A DNA stretch of 64,000 nt from a virus: positions 64,001 to 128,000 of the IMG/VR virus record IMGVR_UViG_3300021197_001931, one strand, 5' to 3'. Positions within the stretch are counted from its first letter, which is position 1. Every line of letters starts with the position of its first letter. The notes under the pieces were generated by a model. The model searched no databases, was not told the origin of the DNA, and worked only from the letters and a program-made list of their open reading frames with translations. The position numbers were made by a program, and so were the translations under genes. Positions 42,857 through 64,000 of the stretch are shown piece by piece.

Positions 42857-45800
42857 ATGGCACATGAAGACGGACACGATGAAGCTGAACCACAAGGAGG
42901 CAACGTTGGCCTTAGATTGTCCGACGATCAGTGGATCGTAAACAATGGCTATTCAGCAGACTACACAGCAAACTCAATTCGTCAAAGTCTAATCAACAGC
43001 ATTAATGAAGGCACAGCAATTAGAAGGGGAGTTTTCATAACCTTGCAAGAGTGGTTTGATTCTGAGGTTAGGACGAACAATGCTCGGTCATGGTTTGCAA
43101 ACGTATCAAATTTAAATATAACAATAGGTGGATCTCCTGACTTTCGACTTGCATATAACGCGACTCAGGCCGTCAACAATGGAGACATAAGGCCATTCGT
43201 TGCGGCTGGTTTCTCTGCGAGGGCGACTGCAATTATAGCTTCAAATCCCGACTCCTCTTTTCGAAATGTAGCTAGAAATGGCTACGTCCACAATAGAATT
43301 AGAAATATATACACGTTTCCCAGCGGCCCAGTGCCTCGTGACATTGTGGAGCAAGTACAGGGAAATTTGCAACAATTTTACGCTGACTCCGAGTCAGAGG
43401 TTAAAACAAGAGAGCAGCTAGATGAATTTATAAGAACAAAGTTTGTAGCGATTCTTGAAACACTGGGGGCGCCTGGTGATATAAATCAAGATCAGCAAGA
43501 TGCATATACCAGATGGGCCACTGGTGATTCAACACTTACAACGACAGATAATTTTCAAGTTGCAATTCGAAATTATCTATATCAACAATTTGCATGGCTT
43601 TATTATACACTCAGGGCTCAACAATTTGTAGATCCATCTCTTGGAAACGACGGCACGCAATTAATGAGTGAAGTGTTGCTCGACATGGACCTGAATGGCC
43701 TTGCCGAAATATATAAAAATGCCCGAATACGCGAGCTAGTCTCTGAGGCTCGTATTGATGCTACTGCAGATAATAGTATAGCCCAAGCTGCAGCGCGAGC
43801 GATTTTGGGCGACCAGGCTTTCGAGGACCTTACAGTAGTTGGACAACAGCTTGGCCTGATAGAAGAAGCAGAGACAGATGATATTGAAGAAACGTTAGAG
43901 GAGAATATAGAGGCACAAGTAGATAACACAAGAACAATACCTCCTGCGCAGTTGGCGCAACAAAGAAGGCTCGCAGAACAAGCATTTTTATTAGATTACT
44001 TAGACAGGTATGCCCTAATCAATAAAAAAAGAGGCGAAAGATATGTTACCCCCGATGGGGATCCTCACTTCATTATGGTTCATGGTCCTACCGATACCAT
44101 AGTAAATAAATTAATGTATAACCCTGCTCTAGAAGAATTAGATTCAATCAAAACATCTGAGTTATCTGGCCTTGTACCAAAAATACGATTATACAAATCA
44201 AGTTACCTACCAACCGAAGATTTTATTAGAGGTAGGGAAATAAGACACAACATACCTTTTAAAAGTTTTATAAATCCCCAAGAAATAGAAGACATGCTGA
44301 CTTCAGATTTTGATAGGGGCCAGGGAGTTGGCATAAAGAGTTTTGAATGGCGTCTTGAGGGGCGAGATCCTTTTGCGGCCCGTAGGGATATATTTGCTAG
44401 GTTGACACTATTTTTTCAAACTATGGATGAGTTTATAAAAACTCGAAATGCGCCAAATCCAAAGTTTGTTGATAATCAGCAAGATGTACCATTACAGGGC
44501 GGCGATGATCCATTTAGTTTTAGATATGTTGATTTAGTAAACATAGGAATGGCCCATCCTGAAAAGAATTTTATATGGGATCCAGACTATTACAAGATTG
44601 AGGCTGAAGTTGGTTGGCACGACCCTGGTGACAGGGGAGACAGTAGCACTTTTTTAAGTGAGGGAACAAGAAACGCCATAAAAAACTCTACTATGGTTCT
44701 TCATTTGGCTGCATATGACCACGAGATTGACATAAATGACGAAGGCAATGTAACTTTAACCATAGAATATCTCGCTTGGCAAGAGGGCGTTTATTTGGGC
44801 CCAGATTCCGATATTTTGTCAACCCCAGAAAGAAGAAGAGATAGACTCAGGTATGTCAAAATTTTAGCTGACAGGCAAAAAGGAAACTGCCCAGAACAAT
44901 ATATTGCAGATTTGCAGGAGGAATACAAGAAAAAAGTTAGAAGACAGAATACAGAGAGTTGGGGGAGGTTACTAAATGGATTATATGAAAACGATAGAAT
45001 ATTTTTTACGAAAGTAGATACAGACTTTTTGGATATTTACCTAAACGAGGGCCGTTCCGGTATTGTACAGCCAATGTTAGAAGAGCTTGGCCTGTCTACT
45101 CCTTTAGCTGAATTTGATCCGGCTGACCCCTCTAACACAGATGCGGCTGCTCCAGCATCCCAAGAAGAGTTGGAATCTAGGATGCCCGAGAGCGTAGATG
45201 GTGCTAATTTTGATGAAAACGAGACTATTTTAGAGTCTTTAAAGGAGCTTCAATATACTCAAGATGACGAGAACTATCATTTACAATTTTTTTATTTTGG
45301 AGATCTGCTTCAAACTGCTCTAGAGGTTGTTCACTCTGACCAAACTCCCCAAGAGGACTCATATGGAGCGAGAAACAAGCTAAAAGAAAATATGAGAATT
45401 CTATTGGGCCCAATCAGCTATGAATTAAACAGAAGAGTTACAGAAAGTGAGGCTCCAGAGAGTATAGCCTCTAAATACATACAAGAGTTAATATATGATA
45501 TAAATCTTGCTGACATTCCTATATCTGTCCACTACTTTATTGATTGGTTTTTAACCAAGGTTGTCGCCCAAGAAAGAACAATATATCCCGTCCTGTCCTT
45601 CATCAGAGAGGTAACTAGTGACCTAATAGCTAACGCTATGAGAACACAAAGCGGAGCAGAGAGAAATGTAGCCAGACAAGAGCTACAGCTTAGAACAAAT
45701 TTTTTTACTGCAGCTGGTTCTAGTAGAGGGCAGGAAGAGAAGCTGTTTCAATATCCATACTTAAATTCTGTCCCTAGCGGCGGTGGGGACTCAGTTTTTA

Positions 45801-46474
45801 TAGAAGAGGACCCCTCTTCGGTCTTCACCAGGGTCAACCTGGCGGGCCCTGGTATAAATTTGCCAAGGCCAATACTTTCAAAGCCTCAAATAAATCAAAA
45901 ATCCTATGATTATATGCTAGTTTACGCCATAAATACTGGGGCCACTGAAGACTTGGATGGTGATAGAGACAAAGACAGAGAAAGGGGAATTTACCATTTT
46001 GGCATAGGAAAACCATATGGCATAATTAAAAATATTAAATTCTCAAAAACAGATATTCCATTTTTAAGAGAAAGCAGGCTAGAGCAAGAGTTTTTAGGTC
46101 AATTGACTGGTCTAGCGGTTCTGGCGAACGTTTACAACGTTACTATAGAGTGCTACGGAACAACTATGTTCCACCCAGGCATGAAGATCTATGTCAACCC
46201 GCTTGGTCTATCTCCAAAGTTTGGCTCCCCAGTGCCCCGAAGTGGCAAATCGTCCCCCGCCAGCATTCTAGGAATTGGGGGATATCATGTCGTGACAAAA
46301 GTTCACTCCCGCATTGAGAGGGGCCTCTATGTAACTACGATAACTGCAATATGGGAGTCAGCGGGGGCTTCTTTGGCAGATTCGGGAACAAGTGTTGCTC
46401 AAATTGGTGAGGCTGATATTGATTGTGTTACAACACGTAAAGAAATTAAATCACTATTGACTTCAATTTCTTAG
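42857..46474 (+). CDS. large baseplate hub protein (gp27/VgrG-like C-terminus)
   Basis: C-terminal TIECYGTTMFHPGM...GGYHVVTKVHSRI...YVTTITA; follows the LysM gene. Confidence 0.6.
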   Translation: MAHEDGHDEAEPQGGNVGLRLSDDQWIVNNGYSADYTANSIRQSLINSINEGTAIRRGVFITLQEWFDSEVRTNNARSWFANVSNLNITIGGSPDFRLAYNATQAVNNGDIRPFVAAGFSARATAIIASNPDSSFRNVARNGYVHNRIRNIYTFPSGPVPRDIVEQVQGNLQQFYADSESEVKTREQLDEFIRTKFVAILETLGAPGDINQDQQDAYTRWATGDSTLTTTDNFQVAIRNYLYQQFAWLYYTLRAQQFVDPSLGNDGTQLMSEVLLDMDLNGLAEIYKNARIRELVSEARIDATADNSIAQAAARAILGDQAFEDLTVVGQQLGLIEEAETDDIEETLEENIEAQVDNTRTIPPAQLAQQRRLAEQAFLLDYLDRYALINKKRGERYVTPDGDPHFIMVHGPTDTIVNKLMYNPALEELDSIKTSELSGLVPKIRLYKSSYLPTEDFIRGREIRHNIPFKSFINPQEIEDMLTSDFDRGQGVGIKSFEWRLEGRDPFAARRDIFARLTLFFQTMDEFIKTRNAPNPKFVDNQQDVPLQGGDDPFSFRYVDLVNIGMAHPEKNFIWDPDYYKIEAEVGWHDPGDRGDSSTFLSEGTRNAIKNSTMVLHLAAYDHEIDINDEGNVTLTIEYLAWQEGVYLGPDSDILSTPERRRDRLRYVKILADRQKGNCPEQYIADLQEEYKKKVRRQNTESWGRLLNGLYENDRIFFTKVDTDFLDIYLNEGRSGIVQPMLEELGLSTPLAEFDPADPSNTDAAAPASQEELESRMPESVDGANFDENETILESLKELQYTQDDENYHLQFFYFGDLLQTALEVVHSDQTPQEDSYGARNKLKENMRILLGPISYELNRRVTESEAPESIASKYIQELIYDINLADIPISVHYFIDWFLTKVVAQERTIYPVLSFIREVTSDLIANAMRTQSGAERNVARQELQLRTNFFTAAGSSRGQEEKLFQYPYLNSVPSGGGDSVFIEEDPSSVFTRVNLAGPGINLPRPILSKPQINQKSYDYMLVYAINTGATEDLDGDRDKDRERGIYHFGIGKPYGIIKNIKFSKTDIPFLRESRLEQEFLGQLTGLAVLANVYNVTIECYGTTMFHPGMKIYVNPLGLSPKFGSPVPRSGKSSPASILGIGGYHVVTKVHSRIERGLYVTTITAIWESAGASLADSGTSVAQIGEADIDCVTTRKEIKSLLTSIS

Positions 46475-46492
46475 TATGAAATAATTATTATA

Positions 46493-47710
46493 ATGGCTAA
46501 CTTTCAAGGCAAAAACAAACAAACTATAAAAAAGTTATTTTATGAAAGACTAAAATATTCATCACAAGCTTTTCCATCAAACGAAAGCCTAGTAGGAGTG
46601 ATCAAAAACTTTCAATTTGCAGAAAGAGCAATGTATGGAAGAATGAATAAAGAACATATTGCAATTTCTTTAAATACGAGCGAAATGAAGAGCTTAAAAA
46701 GCACTAAAGACCCTAAAAAACAAACTATGGTTGTAAATTTTGTTGCAGATGCTTTTGAAAACTTTATAATTGAATTTCAAAAAGCATCTATTTCTGGGAA
46801 ACTAGACGCTGATGATCCTTACCTATTTGATGTCAAAGCCTATAGGGGCTTTATAGACCCAGTTAAGGGCTATCGAGATTACACTAGTAAAATTATTAAT
46901 ATTTTTAATACAAAGTTTTTAACAAAAGAGAGAAGAGAGACAATTAACGATTTTTCCTCTTTTTTTGTCTTATTTTCTTCATACTTGAGTGAGATCTCAG
47001 AATCGTTACCAATAACTTTTGGTTCATATATTACAAGCATTTATTCTGGAGCTTTAAACACGGGCCTAGCAATACATATTTCTGATTTAGATGCATCAAA
47101 TGATTCTGTAAAAGAAGAATTCATTAACAGCACTAATTTTCAATTCTATAAAGTGACTGCCGAAAAACATGGATTTTCAATAAACAAAAATGCCCCTTGG
47201 ATTTTAACTGCCGACATAGCCAGCCCATCCATGCTAAGGTATTCATCCCGATACGGATTTGATAGCGAAGACTCTATACTGTCTGGCTATTATTACAAGG
47301 CCTACACGAAGGACATTGGAAATTTAAAAAGTCTGTTCTATAGGGCCTATAGCCTGTTAATTAGCGAAAAGCCTAAAAACATAAAAGTTAACGATTTTGG
47401 TATGAGAGATGTGACCTGTAGGGCCGAATTGTCCTTACAAGAATTTGGGGAAAGTTACCCTGACAGAAAATGGGTTGACTTTTACGTTGATATTAGATAT
47501 GTTGAGCAACATAAACCTGTGAGTCTGGCTTTTATGAAAATCGTTAAACGAGAAGCAAAGTCGATACAAGCACTAAGTGGTACTGGGGCAGCTCAACAGT
47601 ATATCAACACAGTAATCCGAGGATTTGACAATCACAAAGGCTCTTTTGCTCAAAAAGTTGCAAAACAGCAGTTCAAAAAAGATAAAAAAATAACTAAACC
47701 AACATATTAA
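46493..47710 (+). CDS. hypothetical protein
   Basis: 405-aa AT-rich ORF whose stop overlaps the polA start. Confidence 0.6.
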   Translation: MANFQGKNKQTIKKLFYERLKYSSQAFPSNESLVGVIKNFQFAERAMYGRMNKEHIAISLNTSEMKSLKSTKDPKKQTMVVNFVADAFENFIIEFQKASISGKLDADDPYLFDVKAYRGFIDPVKGYRDYTSKIINIFNTKFLTKERRETINDFSSFFVLFSSYLSEISESLPITFGSYITSIYSGALNTGLAIHISDLDASNDSVKEEFINSTNFQFYKVTAEKHGFSINKNAPWILTADIASPSMLRYSSRYGFDSEDSILSGYYYKAYTKDIGNLKSLFYRAYSLLISEKPKNIKVNDFGMRDVTCRAELSLQEFGESYPDRKWVDFYVDIRYVEQHKPVSLAFMKIVKREAKSIQALSGTGAAQQYINTVIRGFDNHKGSFAQKVAKQQFKKDKKITKPTY

Positions 47711-48903
47711 TGATTTTCCAAACACTCGATAACAAAAGGGAGTGTGTCGGTGTATTTCTCAATGGAGAACTACATTTTGATAACGTTCCTGATAATCTTA
47801 CTCGTACATGGTCTTATTCTTCGTTTCTAGAGGACTATGATGGTATCGAATATGCATTCCTGTATGCTAAGAGGCCCCTAGACGAGGCGTGCCCCAGACA
47901 CTTGGGTGATGAGTGGGATTCCATCAACAATCGCCTCAAAGCGTTTCTTACGGCCTTTAAGGAGTCTAAAATAGATTTGTCCAAAAACTGCTTTTTTGAC
48001 CTAGTTCCCCAGAAGTTTCTAAAGCAATACTGCTCTGTTCGCAACAAGATTACTGAGTATGTGATAAACAATTATCACAAACCAGAAAACTACGATTTTT
48101 TGGTAAACCTAGCAAAAATTACGCATGACATGAAGTTTAGGGATTTGAATATTGATAAAACTGAATTGCGTGACCTAATGCACGAGGAGAAAACTAGAAA
48201 ATTTGCTTATAAGCTGGGTCACATCTCACATTCTTGCAATTATAATATTTTTGGAACAAAGACAGGCAGATTGACCACCAAGAAGAACAGTTTTCCTATA
48301 CTTACAATGGATAAGAGATATAGAAAAATTATCAAGCCAACAAACGATTGGTTTGTATCTCTAGATTTTAATGGCGCTGAACTAAGAACTTTTCTAGCAC
48401 TCGCAGGAATTAGCCAGCCAGATGTAGATGTACATGAGTGGAATCGCATCAATGCTTATAATGAAGTTGGTAGCCGGAAAGAGGTAAAGGAAAGGTTTTT
48501 TGCGTGGCTTTACAATATGGAATCCAAGGATTACCTTTCTCATAGAATTTACGGCAAAAGTAGAGAAAAGGTCATAGAAGAGTATTATCAAAACAACAGC
48601 ATTACAAATCCCTTTGGCAGGTCTATTTCAGCAGACGATTATCATGCCATGAGTTATCTAATTCAAAGCACTTGTTCGGATGTTGTGCTGCGACAAATGA
48701 TTAAGTTGAACAAATACTTGCAGGATAAGGATTCTTTTGTTGCATTTTGTGTGCATGATGAAGTAGTCTTGGACCTTACCGATGTTGAGTGTAAGCTAAT
48801 CAATGTTTTGGTTGAATATTTTACAAATACGCCTTTAGGAAATTTTAAAGTTAATGTAAACTATGGCAAGAATTATGGAGAAATGAGAGAATGGATTCAA
48901 TAA
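47710..48903 (+). CDS. minimal family A DNA polymerase
   Basis: TKTGRLT; motif A LDFNGAELR; motif B RKEVKERFFAWLY; YLIQST; motif C VHDEV. Confidence 0.85.
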   Translation: MIFQTLDNKRECVGVFLNGELHFDNVPDNLTRTWSYSSFLEDYDGIEYAFLYAKRPLDEACPRHLGDEWDSINNRLKAFLTAFKESKIDLSKNCFFDLVPQKFLKQYCSVRNKITEYVINNYHKPENYDFLVNLAKITHDMKFRDLNIDKTELRDLMHEEKTRKFAYKLGHISHSCNYNIFGTKTGRLTTKKNSFPILTMDKRYRKIIKPTNDWFVSLDFNGAELRTFLALAGISQPDVDVHEWNRINAYNEVGSRKEVKERFFAWLYNMESKDYLSHRIYGKSREKVIEEYYQNNSITNPFGRSISADDYHAMSYLIQSTCSDVVLRQMIKLNKYLQDKDSFVAFCVHDEVVLDLTDVECKLINVLVEYFTNTPLGNFKVNVNYGKNYGEMREWIQ

Positions 48904-49724
48904 TCGGATTAGGTGCAGCGGGTTGTAGAATAGCTGATAAATTCTCTCAATACCCTCAATATGATATTTATAAGATGGATGTCGGCCTCAAAAGAACTCC
49001 AAGAACATATGGCATAAAAAAAGCCAGCACCCCCGAAGAGTTTGAGCAATCAATCGGCAGCCTTAAGAGATTCTTCAAGCCGTTACAGGGTGAAGTTTTA
49101 TTTGTTGTTGGAGCTTCTGGCTTTGTTTCTGGTGCTTCTTTGAGGATTCTTGAACAAATAAAATCACACGACACTTCGATCTTGTGCGTTTGTTCAGACC
49201 CAGAATTACTAGGTGAGATGGATAAGATGCAACAGCGCTTAACTATAAATGTGTTTCAGCAATATGCTAGATCTGGAGTTTTTAATAAAGTGGTGTTGGC
49301 CTACAACAATCAGCTTGAAGATATTTTGGGAGATATTCCAGTGATAGGCTTTTATGACAAGTTGAATGATTTACTTATTTCTACAATTAATATCATAAAT
49401 GTGCTTGACCGCTCTGATAGTATTATGGATAATATTTCATCACCGCATGAGGTTAGTAGGCTGTGCACCTATGGAATCGTTGATTTTCAAACAGGGGAAG
49501 AGAAACTATTTTTTCCTGTTGACAGCGTTAGGGAAAAGGTCTATTATTATGCCATCAATGAGGAGAAATTAAGAGAGTCGAGCGATATTCGCAAGAAAAT
49601 AATTTCTCAAGTTAAGGAGAATTCTGTTGACACGAAGGTATCATATGGAATATACTCTACTCAATACGAAGAAGACTACGTTTATTGCGTAGCATATTCT
49701 TCAACGATACAACAATTAGATTAA
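48891..49724 (+). CDS. divergent tubulin/FtsZ-like protein
   Basis: IIGLGAAGCRIA matches the FtsZ N-terminal loop; signature loop degenerate (GASGFVSGA); NNQL and YDKLN-like blocks. Confidence 0.65.
   Translation: MDSIIGLGAAGCRIADKFSQYPQYDIYKMDVGLKRTPRTYGIKKASTPEEFEQSIGSLKRFFKPLQGEVLFVVGASGFVSGASLRILEQIKSHDTSILCVCSDPELLGEMDKMQQRLTINVFQQYARSGVFNKVVLAYNNQLEDILGDIPVIGFYDKLNDLLISTINIINVLDRSDSIMDNISSPHEVSRLCTYGIVDFQTGEEKLFFPVDSVREKVYYYAINEEKLRESSDIRKKIISQVKENSVDTKVSYGIYSTQYEEDYVYCVAYSSTIQQLD
49519..49547 (+). promoter_or_regulatory. sigma70-like promoter P1 for ssb
   Basis: TTGACA-N17-TATTAT. Confidence 0.65.
49627..49656 (+). promoter_or_regulatory. sigma70-like promoter P2 for ssb
   Basis: TTGACA-N18-TATACT. 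Confidence 0.65.
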
Positions 49725-49772: not shown

Positions 49773-50528
49773 ATGGGAATCAATCTAGACAAAATGCGAG
49801 AGAAGCTTGCCGCAGTTCAGAACCGTGGTGATTCAAGTAAGAGTGCTTTCTGGCGTCCAGTGGACGGCGACCAGACTATTCGAATTATTCCAACAGAGGA
49901 TGGAGACCCTTTCAAGGAGGTATATTTTCACTATAATGTAGCTAAGGGTGGAATTGTTTGTCCAAAGCGTAACTATGGTGATGACTGTCCGATTTGCGAG
50001 TTTGGATCAAAGCTGTGGCGTGAAGGGTCAGATAACAACGATGATGCTTCAAAGAGGATGGCAAAGAGCCTGTTTGCAAGGCAGCGATTCTTTAGCCCTG
50101 TAATGGTGCGAGGAGAAGAGCAAGAAGGTCCCCGATGGTGGGGCTATGGCAAGATGGCCTATGAGACACTTCTCAGCCTTGTTCTAAATCCTGATTATGG
50201 GGATATCACTGACCCAGAAGAAGGAACCGACCTTGTTCTTAGTTACGGCAAGCCACCTGGTGCTTCGTTCCCGCAAACAAAGATCCAGCCTCGACGTAGG
50301 ACTTCTCTCATGATGGAAGACGAAAACACAATTGCTGCAACTCTAAGCGCTATTCCGGACGTTGAACAGCTTTTTGAACGTAAGTCGACCCAAGAGGTCC
50401 AGGCGATACTTGACGAGTTTATGTCTAAGGACGTAGATGCGGAGGCCTCATCTTCGGAATCTGTTCACTATGGCAAGAACAGCGGAAATTCTGTTGATCA
50501 GGCATTTAAAGAGCTAATGAACGCATAG
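49773..50528 (+). CDS. single-stranded DNA-binding protein (gp32-like)
   Basis: FWRP, IRIIP, HY...CP...CPIC, DITDPEEGTD; acidic tail. Confidence 0.88.
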   Translation: MGINLDKMREKLAAVQNRGDSSKSAFWRPVDGDQTIRIIPTEDGDPFKEVYFHYNVAKGGIVCPKRNYGDDCPICEFGSKLWREGSDNNDDASKRMAKSLFARQRFFSPVMVRGEEQEGPRWWGYGKMAYETLLSLVLNPDYGDITDPEEGTDLVLSYGKPPGASFPQTKIQPRRRTSLMMEDENTIAATLSAIPDVEQLFERKSTQEVQAILDEFMSKDVDAEASSSESVHYGKNSGNSVDQAFKELMNA

Positions 50529-50546
50529 TTCAAACACATTTGACTT

Positions 50547-50570
50547 GGGGCCCAGAGGGCCCCTTGTCTT
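50547..50570 (+). terminator. GC hairpin between ssb and recA (weak terminator or processing site)
   Basis: GGGGCCC-AGA-GGGCCCC followed by TTGTCTT. Confidence 0.5.
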
Positions 50571-50579
50571 GGAGGGATA

Positions 50580-51695
50580 ATGGCAAGAGCGAGAAAAGTA
50601 AAAACTGGTAAGTTGTCAATGGATGAGATGCGTGGCTTGATTAATAAGCAGGCTGGCTGCGAGGTGGCGTTTAATTTAAATGAGGATAATCCCACAGAGG
50701 TAGAGGAGTGGATCCCAACTGGATCTAGGTGGCTTGATTCTATTGTTTGTCGAGGGCGTCTGGCAGGTATCCCGGTCGGTAAAGTAATTGAAATTGCCGG
50801 ATTAGAGGCCACAGGCAAATCATATATGGCTGCCCAGGTAGCAGCCAATGCTCAAAAGATGGGGATTGATGTTTTCTACTTTGATTCTGAATCAGCAATT
50901 GATCCAACTTTTCTAGTTCGATCAGGATGTGATCTGGACAATATGATGTATGTTCAGGCCTCATCAGTTGAGTTTGTGTTAGAAACCATAGAGATGCTCT
51001 TGTCGTCTAATGACAATAAGATGTTATTTATCTGGGACTCTTTAGCATTAACACCAGCTATTAGTGATATTGAGGGTGATTTTAATCCTCAATCTTCAAT
51101 GGCCATGAAGGCTAGAATTTTGTCCAAAGGTATGGCCAAATTGACACAGCCGATTGCTAATTCGAAATCAACATTTCTTGTGCTTAACCAGCTAAAGTCA
51201 AACATTACTAGAGTGGCTGCTGAAGCTCTAACTACTCCATATGTTACTCCTGGTGGTAAGTCTATGATTTACGCCTACTCCCTTAGAATTTGGCTAACGG
51301 GCCGCAAAGCTAAGAAGAGTTTTGTAGTGGATGAGAATGGGTTTAGAGTCGGAAGTGAGGTAAAAGTAAAGTTAGAAAAATCAAGGTTTGGAACCCAAGG
51401 GAGACAGTGCACTTTCAAAATTCTTTGGGGAGACGAGATTGGTATTCAGGATGATGAAAGTCTCTTTGAAGCTATTAAGTCTTCAAAGTACCTAGATCAA
51501 CGTGGTGCCTGGTATGAGTTGGATATGGGCAACGATACCAAAGAAAAATTTCAATCATCAAAGTGGGTTGAACTTATGCAAAATGATTCGTTTAAGCAGA
51601 GAGTTCACAACATAATGGATGAAGAGATTATTTTTAATTTTGAAAAACGAGAGGGAAGCGCAGAGGACTACTATAATATTGATCCCGAAGAGTAG
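50580..51695 (+). CDS. recA: RecA/UvsX recombinase
   Basis: IPTGS, GLEATGKS, DSE, IWDS, NQL, TPGG. Confidence 0.95.
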   Translation: MARARKVKTGKLSMDEMRGLINKQAGCEVAFNLNEDNPTEVEEWIPTGSRWLDSIVCRGRLAGIPVGKVIEIAGLEATGKSYMAAQVAANAQKMGIDVFYFDSESAIDPTFLVRSGCDLDNMMYVQASSVEFVLETIEMLLSSNDNKMLFIWDSLALTPAISDIEGDFNPQSSMAMKARILSKGMAKLTQPIANSKSTFLVLNQLKSNITRVAAEALTTPYVTPGGKSMIYAYSLRIWLTGRKAKKSFVVDENGFRVGSEVKVKLEKSRFGTQGRQCTFKILWGDEIGIQDDESLFEAIKSSKYLDQRGAWYELDMGNDTKEKFQSSKWVELMQNDSFKQRVHNIMDEEIIFNFEKREGSAEDYYNIDPEE

Positions 51696-51757: not shown

Positions 51758-52153
51758 ATGGTTATTTCCGGCAGACACAAGAGACATATTAAGTTGGCCA
51801 AGAGGGTCGCATATCAGTCTGATTTCCACGAGTATCGTCATGGCGCAGTTCTGGTAAAGGGCAATCGTGTACTAAATACATCAGCAAACAAGAATAGCTA
51901 TAAGCTATGGGGACAAAGGTTCCGCCACCGTGATTGTGGATACGCTACCCATCACGCAGAACTTGGATGTATTCTTGGCGTCGACAGGTCTATCACCCAA
52001 GGTGCAACAGTTTATGTAGCCCGTATCGGCAAGAAGGGGGAGTTTAGAATGTCTAAGCCCTGTTCGATGTGCGAATCAGCCATGAGACACGTAGGCATCA
52101 AAAAGGTTGTATACACTGTTGATGAAGAAGAGATTGGTTCCTTTAAGCTATGA
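51758..52153 (+). CDS. zinc-dependent cytidine/dCMP deaminase-family protein
   Basis: HGAVLV, HAE, SKPCSMC. Confidence 0.88.
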   Translation: MVISGRHKRHIKLAKRVAYQSDFHEYRHGAVLVKGNRVLNTSANKNSYKLWGQRFRHRDCGYATHHAELGCILGVDRSITQGATVYVARIGKKGEFRMSKPCSMCESAMRHVGIKKVVYTVDEEEIGSFKL

Positions 52154-53106
52154 AGAGAGTTTTGATAATCGATGGCCTCAATTCTTATTATAGAGCTTAT
52201 ATTTGTGACCCCAGTGTTTCATCCCATGGCCAGCCTATAGGGGGTATAAAGGGGTTTATCAAAATTCTACAGAGAATGTGCCGCGAGGTAAAACCTGATA
52301 GAATTGTAATTTGTTGGGATGGTCCTGGTGGGAGTAGAAAAAGGCGCACACAGAATAAAAACTATAAATCAGGAAGAAAGCCAATAAAGCTAAACAGAAA
52401 TATACATGTTTTGTCTGTGGACGAAGAGCTAGAAAACAAAGTCTGGCAACAAACAGAGCTAGTAGACATGTTAAACGATATGCCGGTAATTCAACTTTTA
52501 TTTCCAGAGGTTGAGGCTGACGATATTATAAGCTGTGTTGCTCAGGCACCGGTGTTCTCAGGTTGGCAAAAAATCATTGTATCGTCCGATAAAGACTTTA
52601 TTCAACTATGTGATGACGATGTAATACTTTACAGGCCGTCACAAAAACAAATTTTAAATAAGCCAAGAATTATCGAGACTTACGGAATTCATCCAACTAA
52701 TTTTGCCCTAGCTAGAGCTATCGCAGGAGACCCTAGCGACAACATAAAGGGCGTGCAAGGCGTGGGTTTAACCACAGTATCAAAAAGATTTGTTTTTCTG
52801 AAAGAGGAAAAGTCTTTTACTTTTAAAGACATATATGATTTTTGCGATGAAGTAGAGAAAAAACTTAAGGTTCATACGTCTATTTTAGAGAACAAAAAGG
52901 TAATAGAAAATAATTATAAACTGATGCAGCTTTACTCTCCATCGATATCGGTCCAGAGTAGAAAAAAAGTAAATTATATACTTGAGAACGCAGACTTGTC
53001 TTTTAATAAAACAGCCATTATGAAGACAATGTATGGAATAGGATTCGGCGAATTAAACTGGTCGGATCTTTCCACAACCTTAAGAAGAATTTCGGTTGAA
53101 AAGTAA
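52150..53106 (+). CDS. 5'-3' exonuclease (Pol I N-terminal / T4 RNase H-like)
   Basis: LIIDG, YKSGR, EADD, SSDKD, GDPSDNIKGV. Confidence 0.93.
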   Translation: MKRVLIIDGLNSYYRAYICDPSVSSHGQPIGGIKGFIKILQRMCREVKPDRIVICWDGPGGSRKRRTQNKNYKSGRKPIKLNRNIHVLSVDEELENKVWQQTELVDMLNDMPVIQLLFPEVEADDIISCVAQAPVFSGWQKIIVSSDKDFIQLCDDDVILYRPSQKQILNKPRIIETYGIHPTNFALARAIAGDPSDNIKGVQGVGLTTVSKRFVFLKEEKSFTFKDIYDFCDEVEKKLKVHTSILENKKVIENNYKLMQLYSPSISVQSRKKVNYILENADLSFNKTAIMKTMYGIGFGELNWSDLSTTLRRISVEK

Positions 53107-57644: not shown

Positions 57645-58363
57645 GTAAGAGTATTGAGCTTTTTGGTGATGGCATCGGAAAGGTTGAGTACGTTCAACAT
57701 ATGGGCGAGGACATCACAGTTGTTAATTCAGCAAGAGTTTCTTTTGGAAAACAAAAAGAATTTGTCGATGATAAAGATAAGAAGCTAATTAAGTATCTTA
57801 TTAGGCACCGCCACACCTCAACTTTGGAGCATAACAGTGTCACTTTCCGTTTTTGCGTTCCTTTATTTATTCGTAGTCAGCACCACCGTCATCGCACTTG
57901 GTCGTATAATGAAATCTCCAGGCGATACACTGATGTCAACCTCAGCTTTTATGAACCATTGGCTTTCAGGACACAGCATAAGTCAAATCGACAAGCATCG
58001 AACGCAGAAGAACTAGTCGATCCAGATATTTACCATTCTCACCCAGAGATGACTCATCCGGTAAAATCCTCTGCCTCAACCTTGGTGAAAAAGCATCACA
58101 AAGATGCTTTGGATTTGTTTGATAGCCTCCTTGCGTCTGGAGTTTGCCGAGAGCAAGCACGAGGGGTTTTGCCACAAAATCTATATACCGAATACTACGG
58201 CACGGTTAATCTTAGTAATCTTTTAAAATTTATTGATTTACGAACTCACGACGGGGCACAGTGGGAAATACAACAGGTCGCTAAAGCGTGTCTGGAAATC
58301 GCCACTGACTTATGGCCAATTACGGTGGGTGCATACAGAGAAATAAGGCATGCAGAGGATTAG
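57641..58363 (+). CDS. thyX: flavin-dependent thymidylate synthase
   Basis: SARVS, HTSTLEH, RHRTWSYNEISRRY, EQARGVLP, AQWEI. Confidence 0.96.
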   Translation: MSKSIELFGDGIGKVEYVQHMGEDITVVNSARVSFGKQKEFVDDKDKKLIKYLIRHRHTSTLEHNSVTFRFCVPLFIRSQHHRHRTWSYNEISRRYTDVNLSFYEPLAFRTQHKSNRQASNAEELVDPDIYHSHPEMTHPVKSSASTLVKKHHKDALDLFDSLLASGVCREQARGVLPQNLYTEYYGTVNLSNLLKFIDLRTHDGAQWEIQQVAKACLEIATDLWPITVGAYREIRHAED

Positions 58364-59186
58364 GGATCATCTATATAAATTTGATGATTTGGTATTAGGC
58401 GGGACACTTCCTGCATTCCTGTATGCATATTGCAATAGCTTGCCGGTCCTATACGTTGATAAAAAAATTCCTCTTAGATTCGAAGTATCTAATAATAACA
58501 TTTTTGACAACGTTGACAAGGTAGGCCTATGGAATAGGCTTGGGGCTTTCTTGTCTCTGGCTGGGCTGCTTCCCTTTTCTGATAAGCTAACTGGCTTTAG
58601 GATACTTGAAAAAAACTATGCAGAAGCGTATACAGATTCTAGAAAGATAAAAATCTCATTTAATCGTCTTTTAATTTTTGATGAAGATAAAATACAGGGA
58701 CTAGAATCGCCTGTATTTAAGGCAAAGAGAGAATATAAAGTTTATGATTGGCTGATTACAAGGGGAATGTCTAGGCACCAGACAGAGTTACTAGAGTCGG
58801 GTGACAACTTTGTTAAGCAGGTACTTTTCTACCCCTCAGAGAGAAAGGGCACGCAAAAGACAACTAGAGATATGGTTGCGGTGTCTTACTTAACAGAGGA
58901 GCAGATAAACGATTTGGATTATTCAGAGAATTATGCTAGATTAAAAGCAAAGAACATGATGAAAGAGGCTGGCCTTCGTGGCTATTCAAATGGTTTTAGT
59001 AAAATAAAGCAGGCGACTCAGTATTATGCGATTGTATTAGAACACGACCGAAGAGAAGTAAAAACTGTAGGTAGGGACATTTATAAAAATACTGATACAA
59101 TCCTTCACAATGTCTGCAAAGAAGAGGAGATAAACATTGAGTATGTAAGCTCCCAATTGCAAACAATTAATAGACGGCTATGTTAA
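58350..59186 (+). CDS. hypothetical protein with degenerate Rossmann-like N-terminus
   Basis: DDLVLGGTLPAFLYA resembles a DvxIxGxG dinucleotide-binding start. Confidence 0.45.
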   Translation: MQRIRDHLYKFDDLVLGGTLPAFLYAYCNSLPVLYVDKKIPLRFEVSNNNIFDNVDKVGLWNRLGAFLSLAGLLPFSDKLTGFRILEKNYAEAYTDSRKIKISFNRLLIFDEDKIQGLESPVFKAKREYKVYDWLITRGMSRHQTELLESGDNFVKQVLFYPSERKGTQKTTRDMVAVSYLTEEQINDLDYSENYARLKAKNMMKEAGLRGYSNGFSKIKQATQYYAIVLEHDRREVKTVGRDIYKNTDTILHNVCKEEEINIEYVSSQLQTINRRLC

Positions 59187-60052
59187 AAAATGGCCACCAA
59201 CATCCAAACTTATTTCATTTAGCTGGGATTGTGCCTGTGGCATCCCAAAAAATGGATTTTGGAATGGATTGGTCTGATTGCCTTATGCCAATTGCACCAG
59301 ACTTTACGGCTGTTGAGAACGCTGTTCTAGAGTGTGCATGGGCTGGGTGCGAAACAATATGGATAATCTGCAATGATGACGTTTCTCCCCTGATAAGGTA
59401 TCGAATAGGCGACTTTTTGATGGATCCGGTCTATTTTAACAGATTTGATGTTCATCCTAGTGAAAATAAAAGAAGAATACCGGTTTTTTACGTTCCTATT
59501 CACAATAGAGACAGAGGAAGAAGAGATTGTTTGGCATGGAGCGTTATTCATGGAGCAGCTAGGTGTTTTTCTGTTTGTTCTAGATTAAGCAGTCAATTAT
59601 CGCCGAGAAAATACTATGTATCGTTTCCACATGGAATCTATAGGGCAGATTTTCTAAGATCGCATAGAAAATCAATATCATCACCCAAACCATTCTTTTT
59701 GGCTCACCAAGGAAACACAATCAGGACGGGAGCCCAGCTTGGGTTCACTTTTGATGCTGATGACTGGAAAATATTTAGAGATGTGCTGAGACTTCGAAGA
59801 GACGATCTTATTAAAGCAGAGTTGTTGGAAAAAAAGAATGCTGCCTCCCAATTCACTCTTGACATGGTATTTAAAAACGGTAGAATTGAAGACGCCTTAG
59901 AAGCAGAAGTTCCTTGGTACTATCCCATAGATTCTTGGGATATGTACTGCTCTTTTTTGGGATCAAAAGATAGAAAAGAGCTTGCACGACCAGGGCCACA
60001 TATATTAAAATACAGAGAATACAACCGGATTGGATACGAACCAGATGACTAA
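59180..60052 (+). CDS. degenerate sugar-phosphate nucleotidyltransferase-like protein
   Basis: AGIVPVA...DCLMPI, AGCETIWII and IDSWDMY match the GT-A NTP-transferase layout; the GxGTR loop is absent. Confidence 0.55.
   Translation: MLKNGHQHPNLFHLAGIVPVASQKMDFGMDWSDCLMPIAPDFTAVENAVLECAWAGCETIWIICNDDVSPLIRYRIGDFLMDPVYFNRFDVHPSENKRRIPVFYVPIHNRDRGRRDCLAWSVIHGAARCFSVCSRLSSQLSPRKYYVSFPHGIYRADFLRSHRKSISSPKPFFLAHQGNTIRTGAQLGFTFDADDWKIFRDVLRLRRDDLIKAELLEKKNAASQFTLDMVFKNGRIEDALEAEVPWYYPIDSWDMYCSFLGSKDRKELARPGPHILKYREYNRIGYEPDD
59859..59886 (+). promoter_or_regulatory. sigma70-like promoter upstream of dnaE
   Basis: TTGACA-N16-TAGAAT. Confidence 0.5.
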
Positions 60053-63000
60053 CAGAGCCGAACCAGGGATTCCTTTTGTTGGCCTGCACGCACACAGTGT
60101 TGCAGGTTCAATTTTTGATGGCCTAGGCTATCCTGATGAACATATGGAATTTGCTTATAAAAATGGAATGGATGCGCTAGCCCTTACAGACCATGGGAAC
60201 ATGAATGGCCTTTCTCATCAAGTTCTTCATGCAAAGAAGATGATGGAGGAGGGTAAAGACTTTAAGCCCATCTTTGGAATGGAGGCTTATTTTATTCCTT
60301 CAATCAGCGAATGGCGTGTAGAGTATGAGAGAGTGAAAGCTGAGAAGAAGACTAAGAAGAGTGACAGCGAAGTGTCTGGAGCGACCGTTGAGGATGAAGC
60401 TGCCTCCAAACGTGCCGTCAAGAGTGTCCTCAATCGTCGTCGCCATCTCGTGTTGTTGGCGCAAAACCAGAAAGGGTTGGAGAATCTATTTCTTCTCGTT
60501 TCAAACAGCTACAAGCCTGAAAACTTTTATCGCTATCCTCGTGTCGATTACGACCTACTAAACAAATATTCGGAGGGAATTATCGCTGCATCAGCGTGTC
60601 TTGGTGGCGTGTATGCTGGAAACTATTGGGCAAACCGAGATGAGGGCGAGGAGGCTGTCCTCAGCGCTATGCGCGAGACAACAAAGAAGATGGTCTCTAT
60701 TTTTGGTGATCGTTGGTATGGAGAGCTTCAATGGAACAATGTACCAGAACAACATGACCTAAACCAGTATATCATTAAGATGCATGAAGAGTTTGACATC
60801 CCCCTTATTTCAACGGCAGATAGTCACTACCCCAACAGGGACGCCTGGAAAGACCGTGAGCTTTACAAGCGATTGGGCTGGCTAGGAAAGGGCCGACCGG
60901 AGTGGGCTTCTGATGGAGAGCTTCCCTTGAGCGTTGAAGAGATTGGATACGAACTATATCCCAAGAATGGCGATGAGATGTGGGAATCTTATAAGAAATA
61001 TTCTAATCAAGTAGACGTTCAATATGATGATGATCTTGTGCGCAATTCAATTGTTGAGACATTTTTCATTGCTCACTCTCGCATCGATCGTTTTATGCCT
61101 GATACAACGGTCAGGCTGCCAGACTTTGTGGTTCCCGAAGACATATCAGAAGCCCAAGCAATACGCAAGATGTGCTTTGAGGGGCTACGTCGCCTTGGAA
61201 AGCAGGACGATGAGGAGTACACTAGTCGCCTGAACATTGAGCTTGACGTTATTGACGACAGAGGATTCAGTAAATATTTCCTTACAATGAAGGCCATTGC
61301 TGATCGAGCTAACGAAAGCATGCTTACAGGACCAGGCAGAGGTTCAGCTGCTGGGTCTTTGGTAGCTTATGCTCTAAATATAACTCAAGTTGACCCCCTC
61401 AAGTATGGGCTTCTCTTCTCTCGTTTCCTGCGCTCTGATGCCAAGGATTATCCTGATATTGATTATGATGTGGCTGAGCCAATGGCTCTTAAGGAAAAAC
61501 TTGTGGAGGAGTGGGGAGACACAACTGTAGTTCCTATTAGTAATTGGAATACCCTACAGCTTCGAAGTCTTGTTAAAGATATTAGTAAGCTTTACGAGAT
61601 CCCTTTTACAGAAGTGAATAAGGTCACGGGCAAGATGCTCTCTGAAGCAACCCCGCTTGCCAAGAAAGACCATGGAATTACAGCGGGTGTTTACAGTCCA
61701 ACTTTTGAGGAAGTGAAGAAATACAGCAAAACACTTCAAGATTTTCTAACACAATACCCCAAAGTGGCCAGTCATATTGATGTGTTGTATGGCCAGGTTA
61801 GAAGTTGCAGCAGGCACGCTGGTGGTGTTGTAATTGCTGATAACCTAGATAGATACATGCCACTCATTAACAGCAAAGGAGTCCGACAGACTCCCTGGTC
61901 AGAGGGGCAGAATGTGCGCCACTTGGAGCCAATGGGCTTTATTAAGTTTGATATTCTAGGCCTATCGACACTAAGAATGATTGAGGGGGCCATTACACAT
62001 ATTCTAAAGCGTCACAAGGGAGTCAAAGAGCCTACCTTTGATGATGTGAAGGAATTTTATGATAAGCATTTGCACCCTGACACTATTGATTTAAACAATC
62101 AAGACGTATATAAGAATATTTTTCACAAAGGAATGTGGGCAGGAGTCTTTCAATTTACAGAGGAGGGAGCACAAGACTTTTGTCAGAGAGCGCAGCCGAC
62201 TAGTATTATCGACCTAGCTGCAATCACTTCCATTTATAGACCTGGCCCCTTGAGTGCTGGAGTAGACAAGTCATATGTCAAGGCAAAGGAAAACCCAAGA
62301 GATATCAGCTACATACATCCAATTGTGAAAGAACATACTAAAGAAACTTATGGGTTTCTAATCTTTCAAGAGCAGATTGCAATGCTTGCACACAAGCTTG
62401 GCAAGGATGTATCTCTCGATGAAGGCAACCTACTAAGGAAAGTGCTTACCAAGAAAGGCACGGGCAAGGGAGCAAGGGCCAAGAAGAAGATTTATGATAA
62501 GTTCATTGCTGGCTGCGAAGAGAAGGGGATTAAGACCCATCTAGCAACGGAGCTTTGGCAGACCTTTGAATATTTCTCTGGCTATGGCTTTAACAAGTCG
62601 CACGCTGTTTCATATTGCTTCCTATCATATCAGTGTGCGTGGCTTCTAAATTATTATCCTGCAGAGTGGGTTGCAGCGTTTCTAGATAAGGAGCCTGAGA
62701 CAAGGAAAGAGAAGGCTATTAATATTGCCAAGAGCATTCACTTTGAAATTGAAGGCCTTAATATTAATACATCTGGAAAGGTCTGGGAGATCTCAGAGGA
62801 CGGCAAAACATTGATCCAACCTCTATCTTCTTGTAAGGGAATCGGAGATGCGGCTATAGAGCAAATCATAGGCAACAGGCCATATCAAGTTATCGAAGAC
62901 TTTATCTTTAATGAAGACATTGTATATTCAAAAGTAAACAAGAGGGTTATAGATATTTTGATTCGGTCGGGTACTCTTGACGGACTAATTGATGACAGAT

Positions 63001-63479
63001 TCACAGGAGCAAAACACTTCTGGTCTGCCGTAGCTGTTGATCGCCCACGTAACCAGAAGAAGCTTGATGAGAATATTGAGACATATTATCCGGAGGGCGA
63101 CTTCAACGATGAAGAAAAAATTGAATATCTTGTAAGTTTAACTGGCGTATTTCCTATGGAACGTGTTATAACTGGTGAGGTTCTTAGGAAACTACAAGAG
63201 CTTCGTATTCCCCCACTTGGAGAATACGACCCAGACCTTCTAATTTCGTGGTTTATTCCTCGCAAGATTATTCCAAAGAAAACCAAGAAGGGTAAGGATT
63301 ACTGGATTGTTGAATGTATCGATGACACAAGCACAACCACTAGGGTTAGATGCTGGGGTGTTGACCCCAAGAGAGATAAGATACATCTAAATCATCCTTA
63401 CATGGCCAAGCTTGACTATAGTCCCGATTGGGGTTTCTCGACAAGGGCGGTTGGTAGAACTTTTAAGATGTTGGGGTAG
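60030..63479 (+). CDS. dnaE: DNA polymerase III alpha subunit (family C)
   Basis: PHP motifs HAHS, ALTDHG, DSHY; GRGSAAGSL; PDIDYD; KFDILGL; YGFNKSH. True start may be the ATG at 60045. Confidence 0.97.
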   Translation: MDTNQMTNRAEPGIPFVGLHAHSVAGSIFDGLGYPDEHMEFAYKNGMDALALTDHGNMNGLSHQVLHAKKMMEEGKDFKPIFGMEAYFIPSISEWRVEYERVKAEKKTKKSDSEVSGATVEDEAASKRAVKSVLNRRRHLVLLAQNQKGLENLFLLVSNSYKPENFYRYPRVDYDLLNKYSEGIIAASACLGGVYAGNYWANRDEGEEAVLSAMRETTKKMVSIFGDRWYGELQWNNVPEQHDLNQYIIKMHEEFDIPLISTADSHYPNRDAWKDRELYKRLGWLGKGRPEWASDGELPLSVEEIGYELYPKNGDEMWESYKKYSNQVDVQYDDDLVRNSIVETFFIAHSRIDRFMPDTTVRLPDFVVPEDISEAQAIRKMCFEGLRRLGKQDDEEYTSRLNIELDVIDDRGFSKYFLTMKAIADRANESMLTGPGRGSAAGSLVAYALNITQVDPLKYGLLFSRFLRSDAKDYPDIDYDVAEPMALKEKLVEEWGDTTVVPISNWNTLQLRSLVKDISKLYEIPFTEVNKVTGKMLSEATPLAKKDHGITAGVYSPTFEEVKKYSKTLQDFLTQYPKVASHIDVLYGQVRSCSRHAGGVVIADNLDRYMPLINSKGVRQTPWSEGQNVRHLEPMGFIKFDILGLSTLRMIEGAITHILKRHKGVKEPTFDDVKEFYDKHLHPDTIDLNNQDVYKNIFHKGMWAGVFQFTEEGAQDFCQRAQPTSIIDLAAITSIYRPGPLSAGVDKSYVKAKENPRDISYIHPIVKEHTKETYGFLIFQEQIAMLAHKLGKDVSLDEGNLLRKVLTKKGTGKGARAKKKIYDKFIAGCEEKGIKTHLATELWQTFEYFSGYGFNKSHAVSYCFLSYQCAWLLNYYPAEWVAAFLDKEPETRKEKAINIAKSIHFEIEGLNINTSGKVWEISEDGKTLIQPLSSCKGIGDAAIEQIIGNRPYQVIEDFIFNEDIVYSKVNKRVIDILIRSGTLDGLIDDRFTGAKHFWSAVAVDRPRNQKKLDENIETYYPEGDFNDEEKIEYLVSLTGVFPMERVITGEVLRKLQELRIPPLGEYDPDLLISWFIPRKIIPKKTKKGKDYWIVECIDDTSTTTRVRCWGVDPKRDKIHLNHPYMAKLDYSPDWGFSTRAVGRTFKMLG

Positions 63480-63481
63480 CA

Positions 63482-64000
63482 ATGAGTAAAATAAGAGAAT
63501 TCATTATTGAAAGCAAGAAGCACGGAAAACATACTATACTGATTGATGAAGAGGACTGGGAGAAGGTTTCTCAGCACAAGTGGTGCATAGATGCTACGGC
63601 TAGGAGAAACAGTCGTGGAGGGTTTTACGCAAAGACCTCCATCCTACACCCAGACGGGGGGTGGTATGACAACCCAACTAGTGGTCGCGGACGCAGACGA
63701 ACATCAATGTTCCTGCATCGCTTTCTGATGAATCCACCCCCAGGCTATATGGTCGACCATATAAACCATAATGGGCTGGACAACAGAAGGGAAAATCTAC
63801 GTATTTGCACGCGGGTAGAGAACGGACGTAATAGACTTCCTTCAAAGAAGACCGCTTCTGGCTATAAAGGAGTTAGAAGAAACGGCAGCGATAATTGCTG
63901 GCAGGCTAAGATCAATATAGATAAAAAACAAACATATATAGGCTCCTTTGCAACGGCAGAGGAAGCAGCCTTAGCTTATGACAAAGTGGCGATTAAAGAG
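63482..64000 (+). CDS. HNH endonuclease with AP2 domain (3'-truncated, absent from the ORF track)
   Basis: LHRFLM...VDHINHNGLDNRRENLR; SGYKGV...WQAKI...YIGSFATAEEAALAYD. Confidence 0.9.
   Translation, partial: MSKIREFIIESKKHGKHTILIDEEDWEKVSQHKWCIDATARRNSRGGFYAKTSILHPDGGWYDNPTSGRGRRRTSMFLHRFLMNPPPGYMVDHINHNGLDNRRENLRICTRVENGRNRLPSKKTASGYKGVRRNGSDNCWQAKINIDKKQTYIGSFATAEEAALAYDKVAIKE

Follow-up and report, generated by a model that had tools for sequence, protein, structure and literature searches.

To our knowledge, relatives of tubulin and FtsZ are known in phages only as PhuZ, of the nucleus-forming jumbo phages, and TubZ, of plasmid-like prophages, both of which are canonical GTPases. PhuZ requires an acidic C-terminal tail and works with the phage nucleus, and the archaeal cell-shape protein CetZ retains the GGGTG[ST]G signature and the T7 acids. 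Here we analyse a stretch of 64,000 nucleotides (the window), which comprises bases 64001–128000 of a 161,719-bp IMG/VR record (IMGVR_UViG_3300021197_001931) from an uncultured marine phage, and in which a gene for a 277-residue protein with a predicted tubulin/FtsZ fold follows directly on the gene for a small family A DNA polymerase (mini PolA). Every gene of the window is carried on the + strand. Together with the open reading frame (ORF) that precedes them, ORF1, the two genes form the locus considered here; lengths are in amino acids (aa).

48891..49724, + strand: minimal tubulin/FtsZ-fold protein, 277 aa, as predicted by AlphaFold2 (AF2), Foldseek, VIA-align (VIA), conservation and covariation
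47710..48903, + strand: mini PolA, 397 aa, polymerase domain only (Pfam PF00476, 2e-13)
46493..47710, + strand: ORF1, 405 aa, modelled as a LAS-type fold at residues ~48–265 without zinc ligands, then a helical C-terminal domain (AF2, VIA, Foldseek)

An initial annotation of this DNA had described three overlapping ORFs and proposed that their products might form a complex. Its gene boundaries were confirmed: ORF1 and PolA have a single nucleotide in common (TAATG), the overlap of PolA with the tubulin gene is 13 nt, and GGAG stands 10 nt before the ATG of the latter. Each of the three genes is retained across hundreds of clusters, so that the locus is not a chance arrangement. To that annotation the present analysis adds the covariation of a nucleotide pocket, a one-way dependence on PolA, the domain boundaries of PolA, the fold of ORF1 and the placement of promoters.

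Fold and nucleotide pocket of the 277-residue protein

The AF2 model, built on a 25-sequence alignment, has a predicted local distance difference test score (pLDDT) of 92.6 and a predicted template modelling score (pTM) of 0.91. Foldseek comparison of the model with the PDB returned solely FtsZ, TubZ and CetZ, in more than 500 chains, the best being an FtsZ (7e-14, template modelling (TM) score 0.70). VIA gave Z scores of 25.0 for CetZ (3zid), 23.7 for TubZ (2xka), 23.0 for FtsZ (2r6r) and 21.8 for tubulin, in alignments that take in 256–272 of the 277 residues at 11–17% identity. Because Z scores are similar and identities uniformly low, the protein is about equally distant from each known branch of tubulin and FtsZ. 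It is predicted to be a complete two-domain tubulin/FtsZ fold, with a Rossmann-like N-domain of six strands, the core helix H7 and a C-terminal domain, in agreement with the initial annotation, which had suspected a tubulin fold with an altered GTPase signature.

The fold was compared with the individual families. CetZ (PDB 3zid, 4b45, 4b46) is the best structural match, with a root-mean-square deviation of 2.9 over 256 residues, and the phage protein resembles it in having two domains and a central helix H7; however, at 12–17% identity the likeness is undetectable by sequence, and the phage protein is ~60 residues shorter and has a degenerate T4 loop. TubZ (PDB 2xka, 4ei7), of the type III partition systems of Bacillus plasmids and phage c-st, aligns over 270 residues, and both genes are DNA-associated and carried by mobile elements or phages. 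TubZ has a canonical signature, TubR/tubC partners and a long C-terminal tail that is reported to be needed for its dynamics (PMC5322520), whereas the gene studied here has neither a tail nor an adjacent adaptor gene. PhuZ, of the phiKZ-like phages, is itself a phage tubulin fold, and PhuZ entries of BFVD were matched at E ~4e-7, but with TM scores of just 0.5–0.6 and 11–12% identity. The hhalign alignment to E. coli FtsZ, which is not significant, is topologically consistent from T1 to H7 and pairs GLGxAG with GVGGGG, PE with NPE, N139 with N165 and N159-D160 with N186-D187. In contrast to FtsZ, the phage protein has lost the T3 glycines, has a T4 loop ~2 residues shorter in which G75 alone is conserved, and lacks both the T7 NxDxxD motif and the C-terminal peptide.

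The protein has no match in Pfam or PHROGs, and BFVD holds no member of its family. Searches of 50,697 phage records by blastn and tblastn with the tubulin gene found no match, nor did the family profile in the four nearest cultured-phage records. In the PDB, phmmer and profile searches picked up nothing beyond matches of chance level or of Rossmann type. The Pfam Tubulin profile, PF00091, found nothing over the whole phage record, though it matched 13 of 14 control genomes. Several points weigh against the assignment: homology to tubulin and FtsZ rests on predicted structure, hhalign of the family against FtsZ is not significant (E 0.039–0.5), and the deeper profile, when used in the PDB search, prefers the Rossmann-type KtrA. 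The family itself is large. A profile search of 1.84 billion representatives yielded 867 clusters (50% identity), of which 329 fell below 1e-30 and all were ~275–290 aa long, with members recovered from Tara, JGI and ENA samples. Judged by its modelled structure, the protein appears to be the founder of a minimal family that is new to the tubulin/FtsZ superfamily.

Motif states were scored over 137 cluster representatives. The tubulin-like N-terminal loop recognized in the initial annotation is T1 (IGLGAAGC), whose GLGAAG core (G6-L-G8-x-A-G11) fits the GxGxxG pattern and includes a glycine, G8, found in 99% of clusters; the other near-invariant positions are Y24, G75, L84, L87, Q123, R127, S128 and Q274. 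G75, the first glycine of T4, is conserved at 92% but is Ala in the present copy, in which T4 reads GASGFVSGA, as that annotation had it, and departs from the signature [SAG]GGTG[SA]G. The family T4 is roughly x-G-[GAS]-[GS]-x-[IV]-[SA]-G-A, the Thr having given way to any residue and the fifth Gly to Ile or Val, and the T3 glycines are absent from the family. The T7/H8 region (residues 174–190) is coil in the AF2 model and has no conserved acid, and the NxDxx[DE] motif of T7 is missing from the present copy. By sequence register, not by coordinates, the position of FtsZ D212 is Glu or Asp in 43% of clusters and Ser in the present copy. The chain stops 7 residues past the last strand, S10, and so has no C-terminal tail.

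Two base-contact residues, mapped by hidden Markov model and hhalign, are found in most of the family: N139 in T6 in 77% of clusters and N159 in H7 in 79%. Both are present in 101 clusters and both absent in 25, with 11 mixed (Fisher 4e-17, uncorrected for phylogeny). Position 77, in T4, is Asp or Glu in 84% of the clusters that lack N139 and N159, as against 1% of those that have them. We read the joint retention or loss of residues 77, N139 and N159 as the mark of one working nucleotide pocket in most members, including the present copy, which, given its T1, G77, N139 and N159, probably binds nucleotide. Forms that have lost the pocket make up a deep clade (L094–L105, L127, L166) and occur separately in L143 and L157, thus in at least two lineages, and their gene context is unchanged. 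Residues Q123, R127, S128 and Q274 are conserved at 95% or above in both the pocket-present and the pocket-absent class, and R/K190 is conserved in both too. Since the pocket can be lost while this patch and the gene context are kept, the conserved function of the family would not need the pocket.

Fold, family, gene context and motif states are shown here; what the protein binds and does is inferred from them. The reading we prefer, and to which we give about an even chance, is that the present copy binds nucleotide, is not a classic polymerization-activated GTPase, and acts as a scaffold or adaptor with replication or recombination proteins. Such a role is favoured because the family lacks both a conserved acid in T7 and a tail, and because the pocket has been lost in lineages that keep Q123, R127, S128 and Q274. 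The protein would then be a static or slowly cycling scaffold or adaptor instead of a cytomotive filament driven by GTP, and its nucleotide would serve it structurally or as a regulator.

The opposite view, that the protein is a cytomotive phage tubulin like PhuZ or TubZ, whose GTP-driven filaments position or segregate replicating phage DNA, is in our opinion unlikely. It would account for a complete two-domain fold that resembles TubZ so closely, has phage precedents in BFVD and is encoded among replication genes, and for the retention of T1 and of the T6 and H7 base-contact residues in about three-quarters of clusters. The acidic residue at the D212-like position in 43% of clusters also argues against our preferred reading, in that some members could still hydrolyse GTP in filaments. 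Nevertheless, the degeneracy of the T3 and T4 phosphate loops extends throughout the family, the T7 acid is unconserved and missing from the present copy, and the protein ends after S10 without the tail that PhuZ and TubZ need. No TubR-like adaptor gene is adjacent, and lineages that have lost the pocket retain the gene, its invariant patch and its context.

The mini PolA and its linkage to the tubulin gene

Linkage was counted over 155 loci from two IMG/VR scans, in which some contigs were included twice. Where the flank extends far enough, PolA lies directly upstream of the tubulin gene in 121/121 loci; gp32 lies downstream of it in 136/136, and an ORF1 homologue precedes PolA in 97 of 99. 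Of 68 loci scored for the junction of PolA and the tubulin gene, 47 have an overlap or a distance of at most 3 nt. The link between tubulin gene and polymerase, as put forward in the initial annotation, thus holds among relatives; as gene order is collinear region-wide, however, adjacency alone is weak evidence of common function and tells against reading a shared role from it.

In 18 of 68 relatives an accessory gene occupies the precise junction of PolA and the tubulin gene. It is either a ~103-aa ORF with no Pfam match (in L007, L020, L024, L038 and others) or an ORF of 640–850 aa (L009:3407–5956, L039:1466–3388, L052:3706–5619); two of these three large ORFs carry MopE metal-binding repeats and a weak VWA match. 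Among 185,579 prokaryote genomes, the sole match was L169 (CP070664.1, 2247234–2256046), in a metagenome-assembled genome labelled ‘candidate division WOR-3’. It holds the block ORF1-PolA-tubulin-gp32-UvsX, with UvsX 80% identical, and is most likely a phage contig binned into that assembly, not evidence of a host.

A profile search of the PDB with the mini PolA matched Taq and Bst Pol I in alignments that begin at residue ~175, and hhalign places its residues 207–387 on 693–924 of E. coli Pol I, so that the alignments to all three enzymes begin beyond the thumb. The initial annotation had recognized motifs A (DxxxxE), B (RxxxKxxxFxxxY) and C (HDE), and their residues align to E. coli Pol I: D219 corresponds to D705, E224 to E710, R256, K260, F264 and Y268 to R754, K758, F762 and Y766, Q319 to Q849, and H349-D350-E351 of motif C to H881-D882-E883. 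G186, R187, R205, D219, E224, R256, K260, Y268, Q319, H349 and D350 are invariant in 62 orthologues, in 56 of which F264, at the Phe762 position, is also Phe. Motif C (48754–48762) reads HDE in the phage's own clade alone; it is HDS in 48/62 and HDA in 5/62 orthologues, so that the residue equivalent to Klenow E883 is usually non-acidic. Pfam and the profile search of the PDB revealed no 3'–5' exonuclease domain, in keeping with the annotated lack of one, and the protein has no 5'–3' nuclease domain.

That annotation had also seen little room for a thumb, and here the measurements contradict it: ~175–206 residues precede motif A, as many as the ~175 (residues 518–692) of Klenow, although the N-terminal 175 have no detectable sequence similarity. 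By length, the protein could accommodate a thumb, and it is of whole polymerase-domain size, not a thumbless stump; its conserved residues suggest a complete, catalytically intact polymerase domain. With Klenow residues 518–928, Klentaq and the Bst large fragment it has in common the catalytic residues of motifs 2, A, B, 6 and C, and it is of the Phe762 type. It differs from Pol I in that it has no 3'–5' exonuclease, active or vestigial, and no 5' nuclease, FEN being encoded by its own gene, and has fingers shortened by ~12 residues between motifs A and B and by ~32 between motif B and Q849. A zinc site was considered for the four cysteines that are invariant in close relatives and was rejected, as C61 and C108 are lost in deeper orthologues. 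A PolA query of the ESM Atlas returned its own family only.

Mini PolAs of 416–456 aa occur with no tubulin homologue in Flavobacterium phage vB_FspM_immuto (immuto), Microcystis phage Mel-JY01 and LR756508. As the mini PolA is found without the tubulin gene while the tubulin gene always comes with PolA, the dependence is one-way. The two small genes between PolA and the single-strand DNA-binding protein (SSB) gene of immuto were considered as a split tubulin, but hhalign gave a probability below 1% and the slot is filled by unrelated genes. Among the gene pairs compared, the distance matrices of PolA and the tubulin gene correlate best (Pearson 0.75, partial 0.54, 0/2000 permutations). Against a shared function, the mirror-tree Spearman coefficient of this pair is only 0.28, equal to that of ORF1 and PolA; the mirror-tree signal is therefore suggestive and is not separable from tight linkage.

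These results bear on a second alternative, namely that the tubulin-fold protein serves the mini PolA as a dedicated subunit, such as a tether or a processivity factor, co-produced by translational coupling. An invariant arrangement with PolA directly upstream, stop and start overlapping in most loci, the highest distance-matrix correlation and a conserved patch independent of the nucleotide pocket all fit such a subunit. Linkage could, however, account for the correlation, whose rank form does not exceed that of ORF1 with PolA; genes are inserted between the two in 18/68 loci; and immuto, Mel-JY01 and LR756508 have the polymerase without the tubulin. We therefore think this role rather improbable, and a PolA–tubulin complex, as advanced in the initial annotation, is not borne out by a correlation that is weak by rank and a polymerase that cultured relatives carry on its own.

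Expression signals and ORF1

The signals found around the locus are:

47475..47503, + strand: candidate sigma-70-type promoter TTGACT-17-TATGTT for the PolA-tubulin operon, in the 3' end of ORF1 (scan; weaker site)
49519..49656, + strand: two strong sigma-70-type matches, TTGACA-17-TATTAT and TTGACA-18-TATACT, in the 3' end of the tubulin gene upstream of gp32 (scan)
50547..50563, + strand: terminator-like GC hairpin after gp32

The two strong matches start at 49519 and 49627. In relatives, a strong host-type site of the form TTGACA-N17-TATAAT occurs within 200 nt upstream of PolA, inside the 3' end of ORF1, in 17 of 28 loci; the same type precedes gp32 in 46/78 loci, the tubulin gene in 4/64 and ORF1 in 1/21. 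We conclude that PolA and the tubulin gene constitute the first operon of the replication block (PolA-Tub-gp32). The hairpin, a perfect 7-bp stem (GGGGCCC-AGA-GGGCCCC) followed by a weak T tract, is the sole strong terminator-like site within 46–52 kb. ORF1 has no Shine–Dalgarno sequence, and a sigma-70-like promoter at 46457–46485 (TTGACT-17-AATAAT with an upstream TG), 8 nt before its ATG, would yield a near-leaderless message; this candidate was set aside, as it is not conserved (1/21 loci). The T4 late promoter TATAAATA was likewise rejected, its frequency being at chance level. Two marine metatranscriptomes contain five short contigs, 99–100% identical and at depth 2–4, in ORF1, PolA and the tubulin/gp32 junction. 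They may represent DNA carry-over, hold no transcript ends and are too little to define transcription units.

A host-type promoter upstream would suggest early expression, as expected if the protein were a blocker of host division, which would mimic FtsZ and, its T7 face being defective, cap or poison the filaments of host FtsZ at an early stage of infection. Its FtsZ-like fold and the absence of the catalytic acid, which has to come from the incoming subunit, are what such a mimic would have, and inhibition of FtsZ by phages is known, for example that by lambda Kil (PMC3961180). However, identity to any FtsZ is only 11–16%, and CetZ, TubZ and tubulin are equally distant, which argues against conserved FtsZ interfaces; the gene is linked absolutely to PolA and gp32 and not to host-takeover genes; and related cultured phages do without it. 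On balance we regard this role as improbable, slightly more so than that of a polymerase subunit.

ORF1 probably belongs elsewhere. Its AF2 model (pLDDT 89.9, from 38 orthologues) gave VIA rows of which the 12 best are all of the LAS (Hedgehog/DD-peptidase) fold, led by LdcB (4jid, Z 8.1) and including VanXYc, VanX, Shh-N, Ply500, LysB4 and MepA, before unrelated helical rows; Foldseek also pointed to the LAS family (probability 0.97, E 0.05). The Z of 8.1 is borderline and counts against this assignment of fold, and ORF1 has no match in Pfam, PHROG, PDB sequences or the ESM Atlas. The zinc ligands of LAS metallopeptidases are His, Asp and His, in the motifs SxHxxGxAxD and ExxH. No His is conserved across the 38 orthologues, in which Leu or Met stands at the first ligand position and any of Glu, Asp, His, Tyr and Phe at that of the Asp. 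As no histidine is conserved, the zinc site is gone. In comparison with the LAS metallopeptidases VanY and LdcB (PDB 4jid, 4mur; PF02557), to which residues 48–261 of the model have their borderline match, ORF1 lacks both zinc-binding histidines and any Pfam match, and adds a helical insertion and a C-terminal helical domain.

A similar domain is found in immuto, in which a 938-aa tail-module protein encoded two genes before PolA ends in a VanY domain (Pfam 6.6e-10). hhalign of ORF1 against that domain is weak (E 0.012) and pairs SPLxSGLxIE with SPHGWGGALD and APWRL with NPWRL. The immuto protein, gp237 (L083:10511–13324, ‘carboxypeptidase’), keeps SPHGWGGALD and has NPWRL in place of the usual ExxH of VanY; the PWRL motif is also near-invariant in the ORF1 family. 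ORF1 thus models as a catalytically dead pseudo-peptidase of the VanY/LAS fold. Because of its modelled fold, its likeness to the immuto tail protein and the placement of the promoter in relatives, it is probably the end of the tail block and not, as initially annotated, a member of the module. The idea that it supplies what the mini PolA lacks, as the exonuclease or thumb part of a divided Pol I, was rejected, its modelled fold being LAS-like and not DnaQ-like. Although ORF1 abuts PolA in 97/99 loci with gaps of −1 to ~18 nt, the three-protein complex of ORF1, PolA and tubulin that the initial annotation envisaged is very improbable, given that ORF1 models as a peptidoglycan-peptidase type of fold, resembles the VanY domain of a cultured relative's tail-module protein, evolves much faster than PolA (22–30% identity in relatives in which PolA has 40–50%), and, in relatives, has the promoter between its body and PolA.

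Genomic setting and possible role

The phage is a T4-type myovirus of ~160 kb, and the stretch spans the junction of its tail and replication blocks. Virion genes (major capsid, sheath, tube, baseplate hub) fill bases 1 to ~42,000 of the window. From 47.7 kb the replication block encodes the mini PolA, the 277-residue protein, a gp32 SSB, UvsX/RecA, dCMP deaminase, FEN, DnaB, ribonucleotide reductase, ThyX and DnaE, the last a full-length gene, as had been annotated. The remaining features are:

28765–30579, + strand: major capsid
34925–37864, + strand: sheath
42857..46474, + strand: 1205-aa protein, function unassigned, after the sheath, tube and baseplate-hub genes (ORF list; neighbours are tail genes)
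49773..50528, + strand: gp32-type single-strand DNA-binding protein (Pfam PF08804, 1e-15; phrog_1192)
50580..51695, + strand: UvsX/RecA recombinase (Pfam RecA, 6e-38; phrog_97)
52150..53106, + strand: 5'–3' exonuclease (FEN) encoded separately, as the nuclease part of a split Pol I (Pfam PF02739, 1e-28)
60030..63479, + strand: DnaE (Pol III alpha, including a PHP domain), probably the replicative polymerase (Pfam PF07733, PF17657, PF02811, PF14579)

The 1205-aa protein has no Pfam or PHROG match, and its gene is kept upstream of ORF1 in relatives. Directly before DnaE lie two overlapping genes (58350–59186 and 59180–60052; 278 and 290 aa) with no Pfam match, whose products may be partners of DnaE, as clamp, clamp loader or proofreader. 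Directly 3' of DnaE, an HNH endonuclease with an AP2 DNA-binding domain (63482–64000), likely a homing endonuclease, extends past the end of the window.

The capsid protein is 46% identical to that of immuto and 41% to that of Rhodothermus phage RM378, which assigns the phage to the ‘Far-T4’ group (PMC4360716). Neither tubulin nor FtsZ is mentioned in PMC4360716. In the literature searched, no paper links tubulin or FtsZ with Far-T4 phages, a survey of PolA in virioplankton is silent on them too, and the arrangement of tubulin gene and PolA was not found, consistent with its having been annotated as undescribed.

In the mechanism that we propose, PolA and the tubulin-like gene would open the replication operon PolA-Tub-gp32, to be followed by UvsX, the deaminase, FEN and DnaB. 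With DnaE as the replicase, the mini PolA and the separate FEN would fill gaps, mature Okazaki fragments and carry out repair, as Pol I does, and, judging from the gene set, a split Pol I role is the most likely one for the pair. A more specific and quite speculative version of the scaffold, of low probability in our estimate, is that a tubulin fold has been recruited to the viral replisome as a nucleotide-optional subunit, which binds the mini Pol I, itself free of proofreading, (or gp32 or UvsX) via Q123, R127, S128 and Q274 and tethers or organizes lagging-strand and repair synthesis. If that were true, the tubulin fold would here be put to use outside the cytoskeleton.

The presence of mini PolA, separate FEN and DnaE shows that a T4-like virion and a bacterial-style replisome can go together in one phage. 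Abundant and globally distributed marine T4-type phages carry, in the 277-residue protein, the smallest tubulin-fold protein among those compared. With its GTPase motifs eroded, and its pocket discarded in some lineages without loss of the gene, the family may serve as a natural test case for a tubulin fold without GTP-driven dynamics, and the tubulin-fold gene points to an unrecognized step in phage DNA replication or host takeover.

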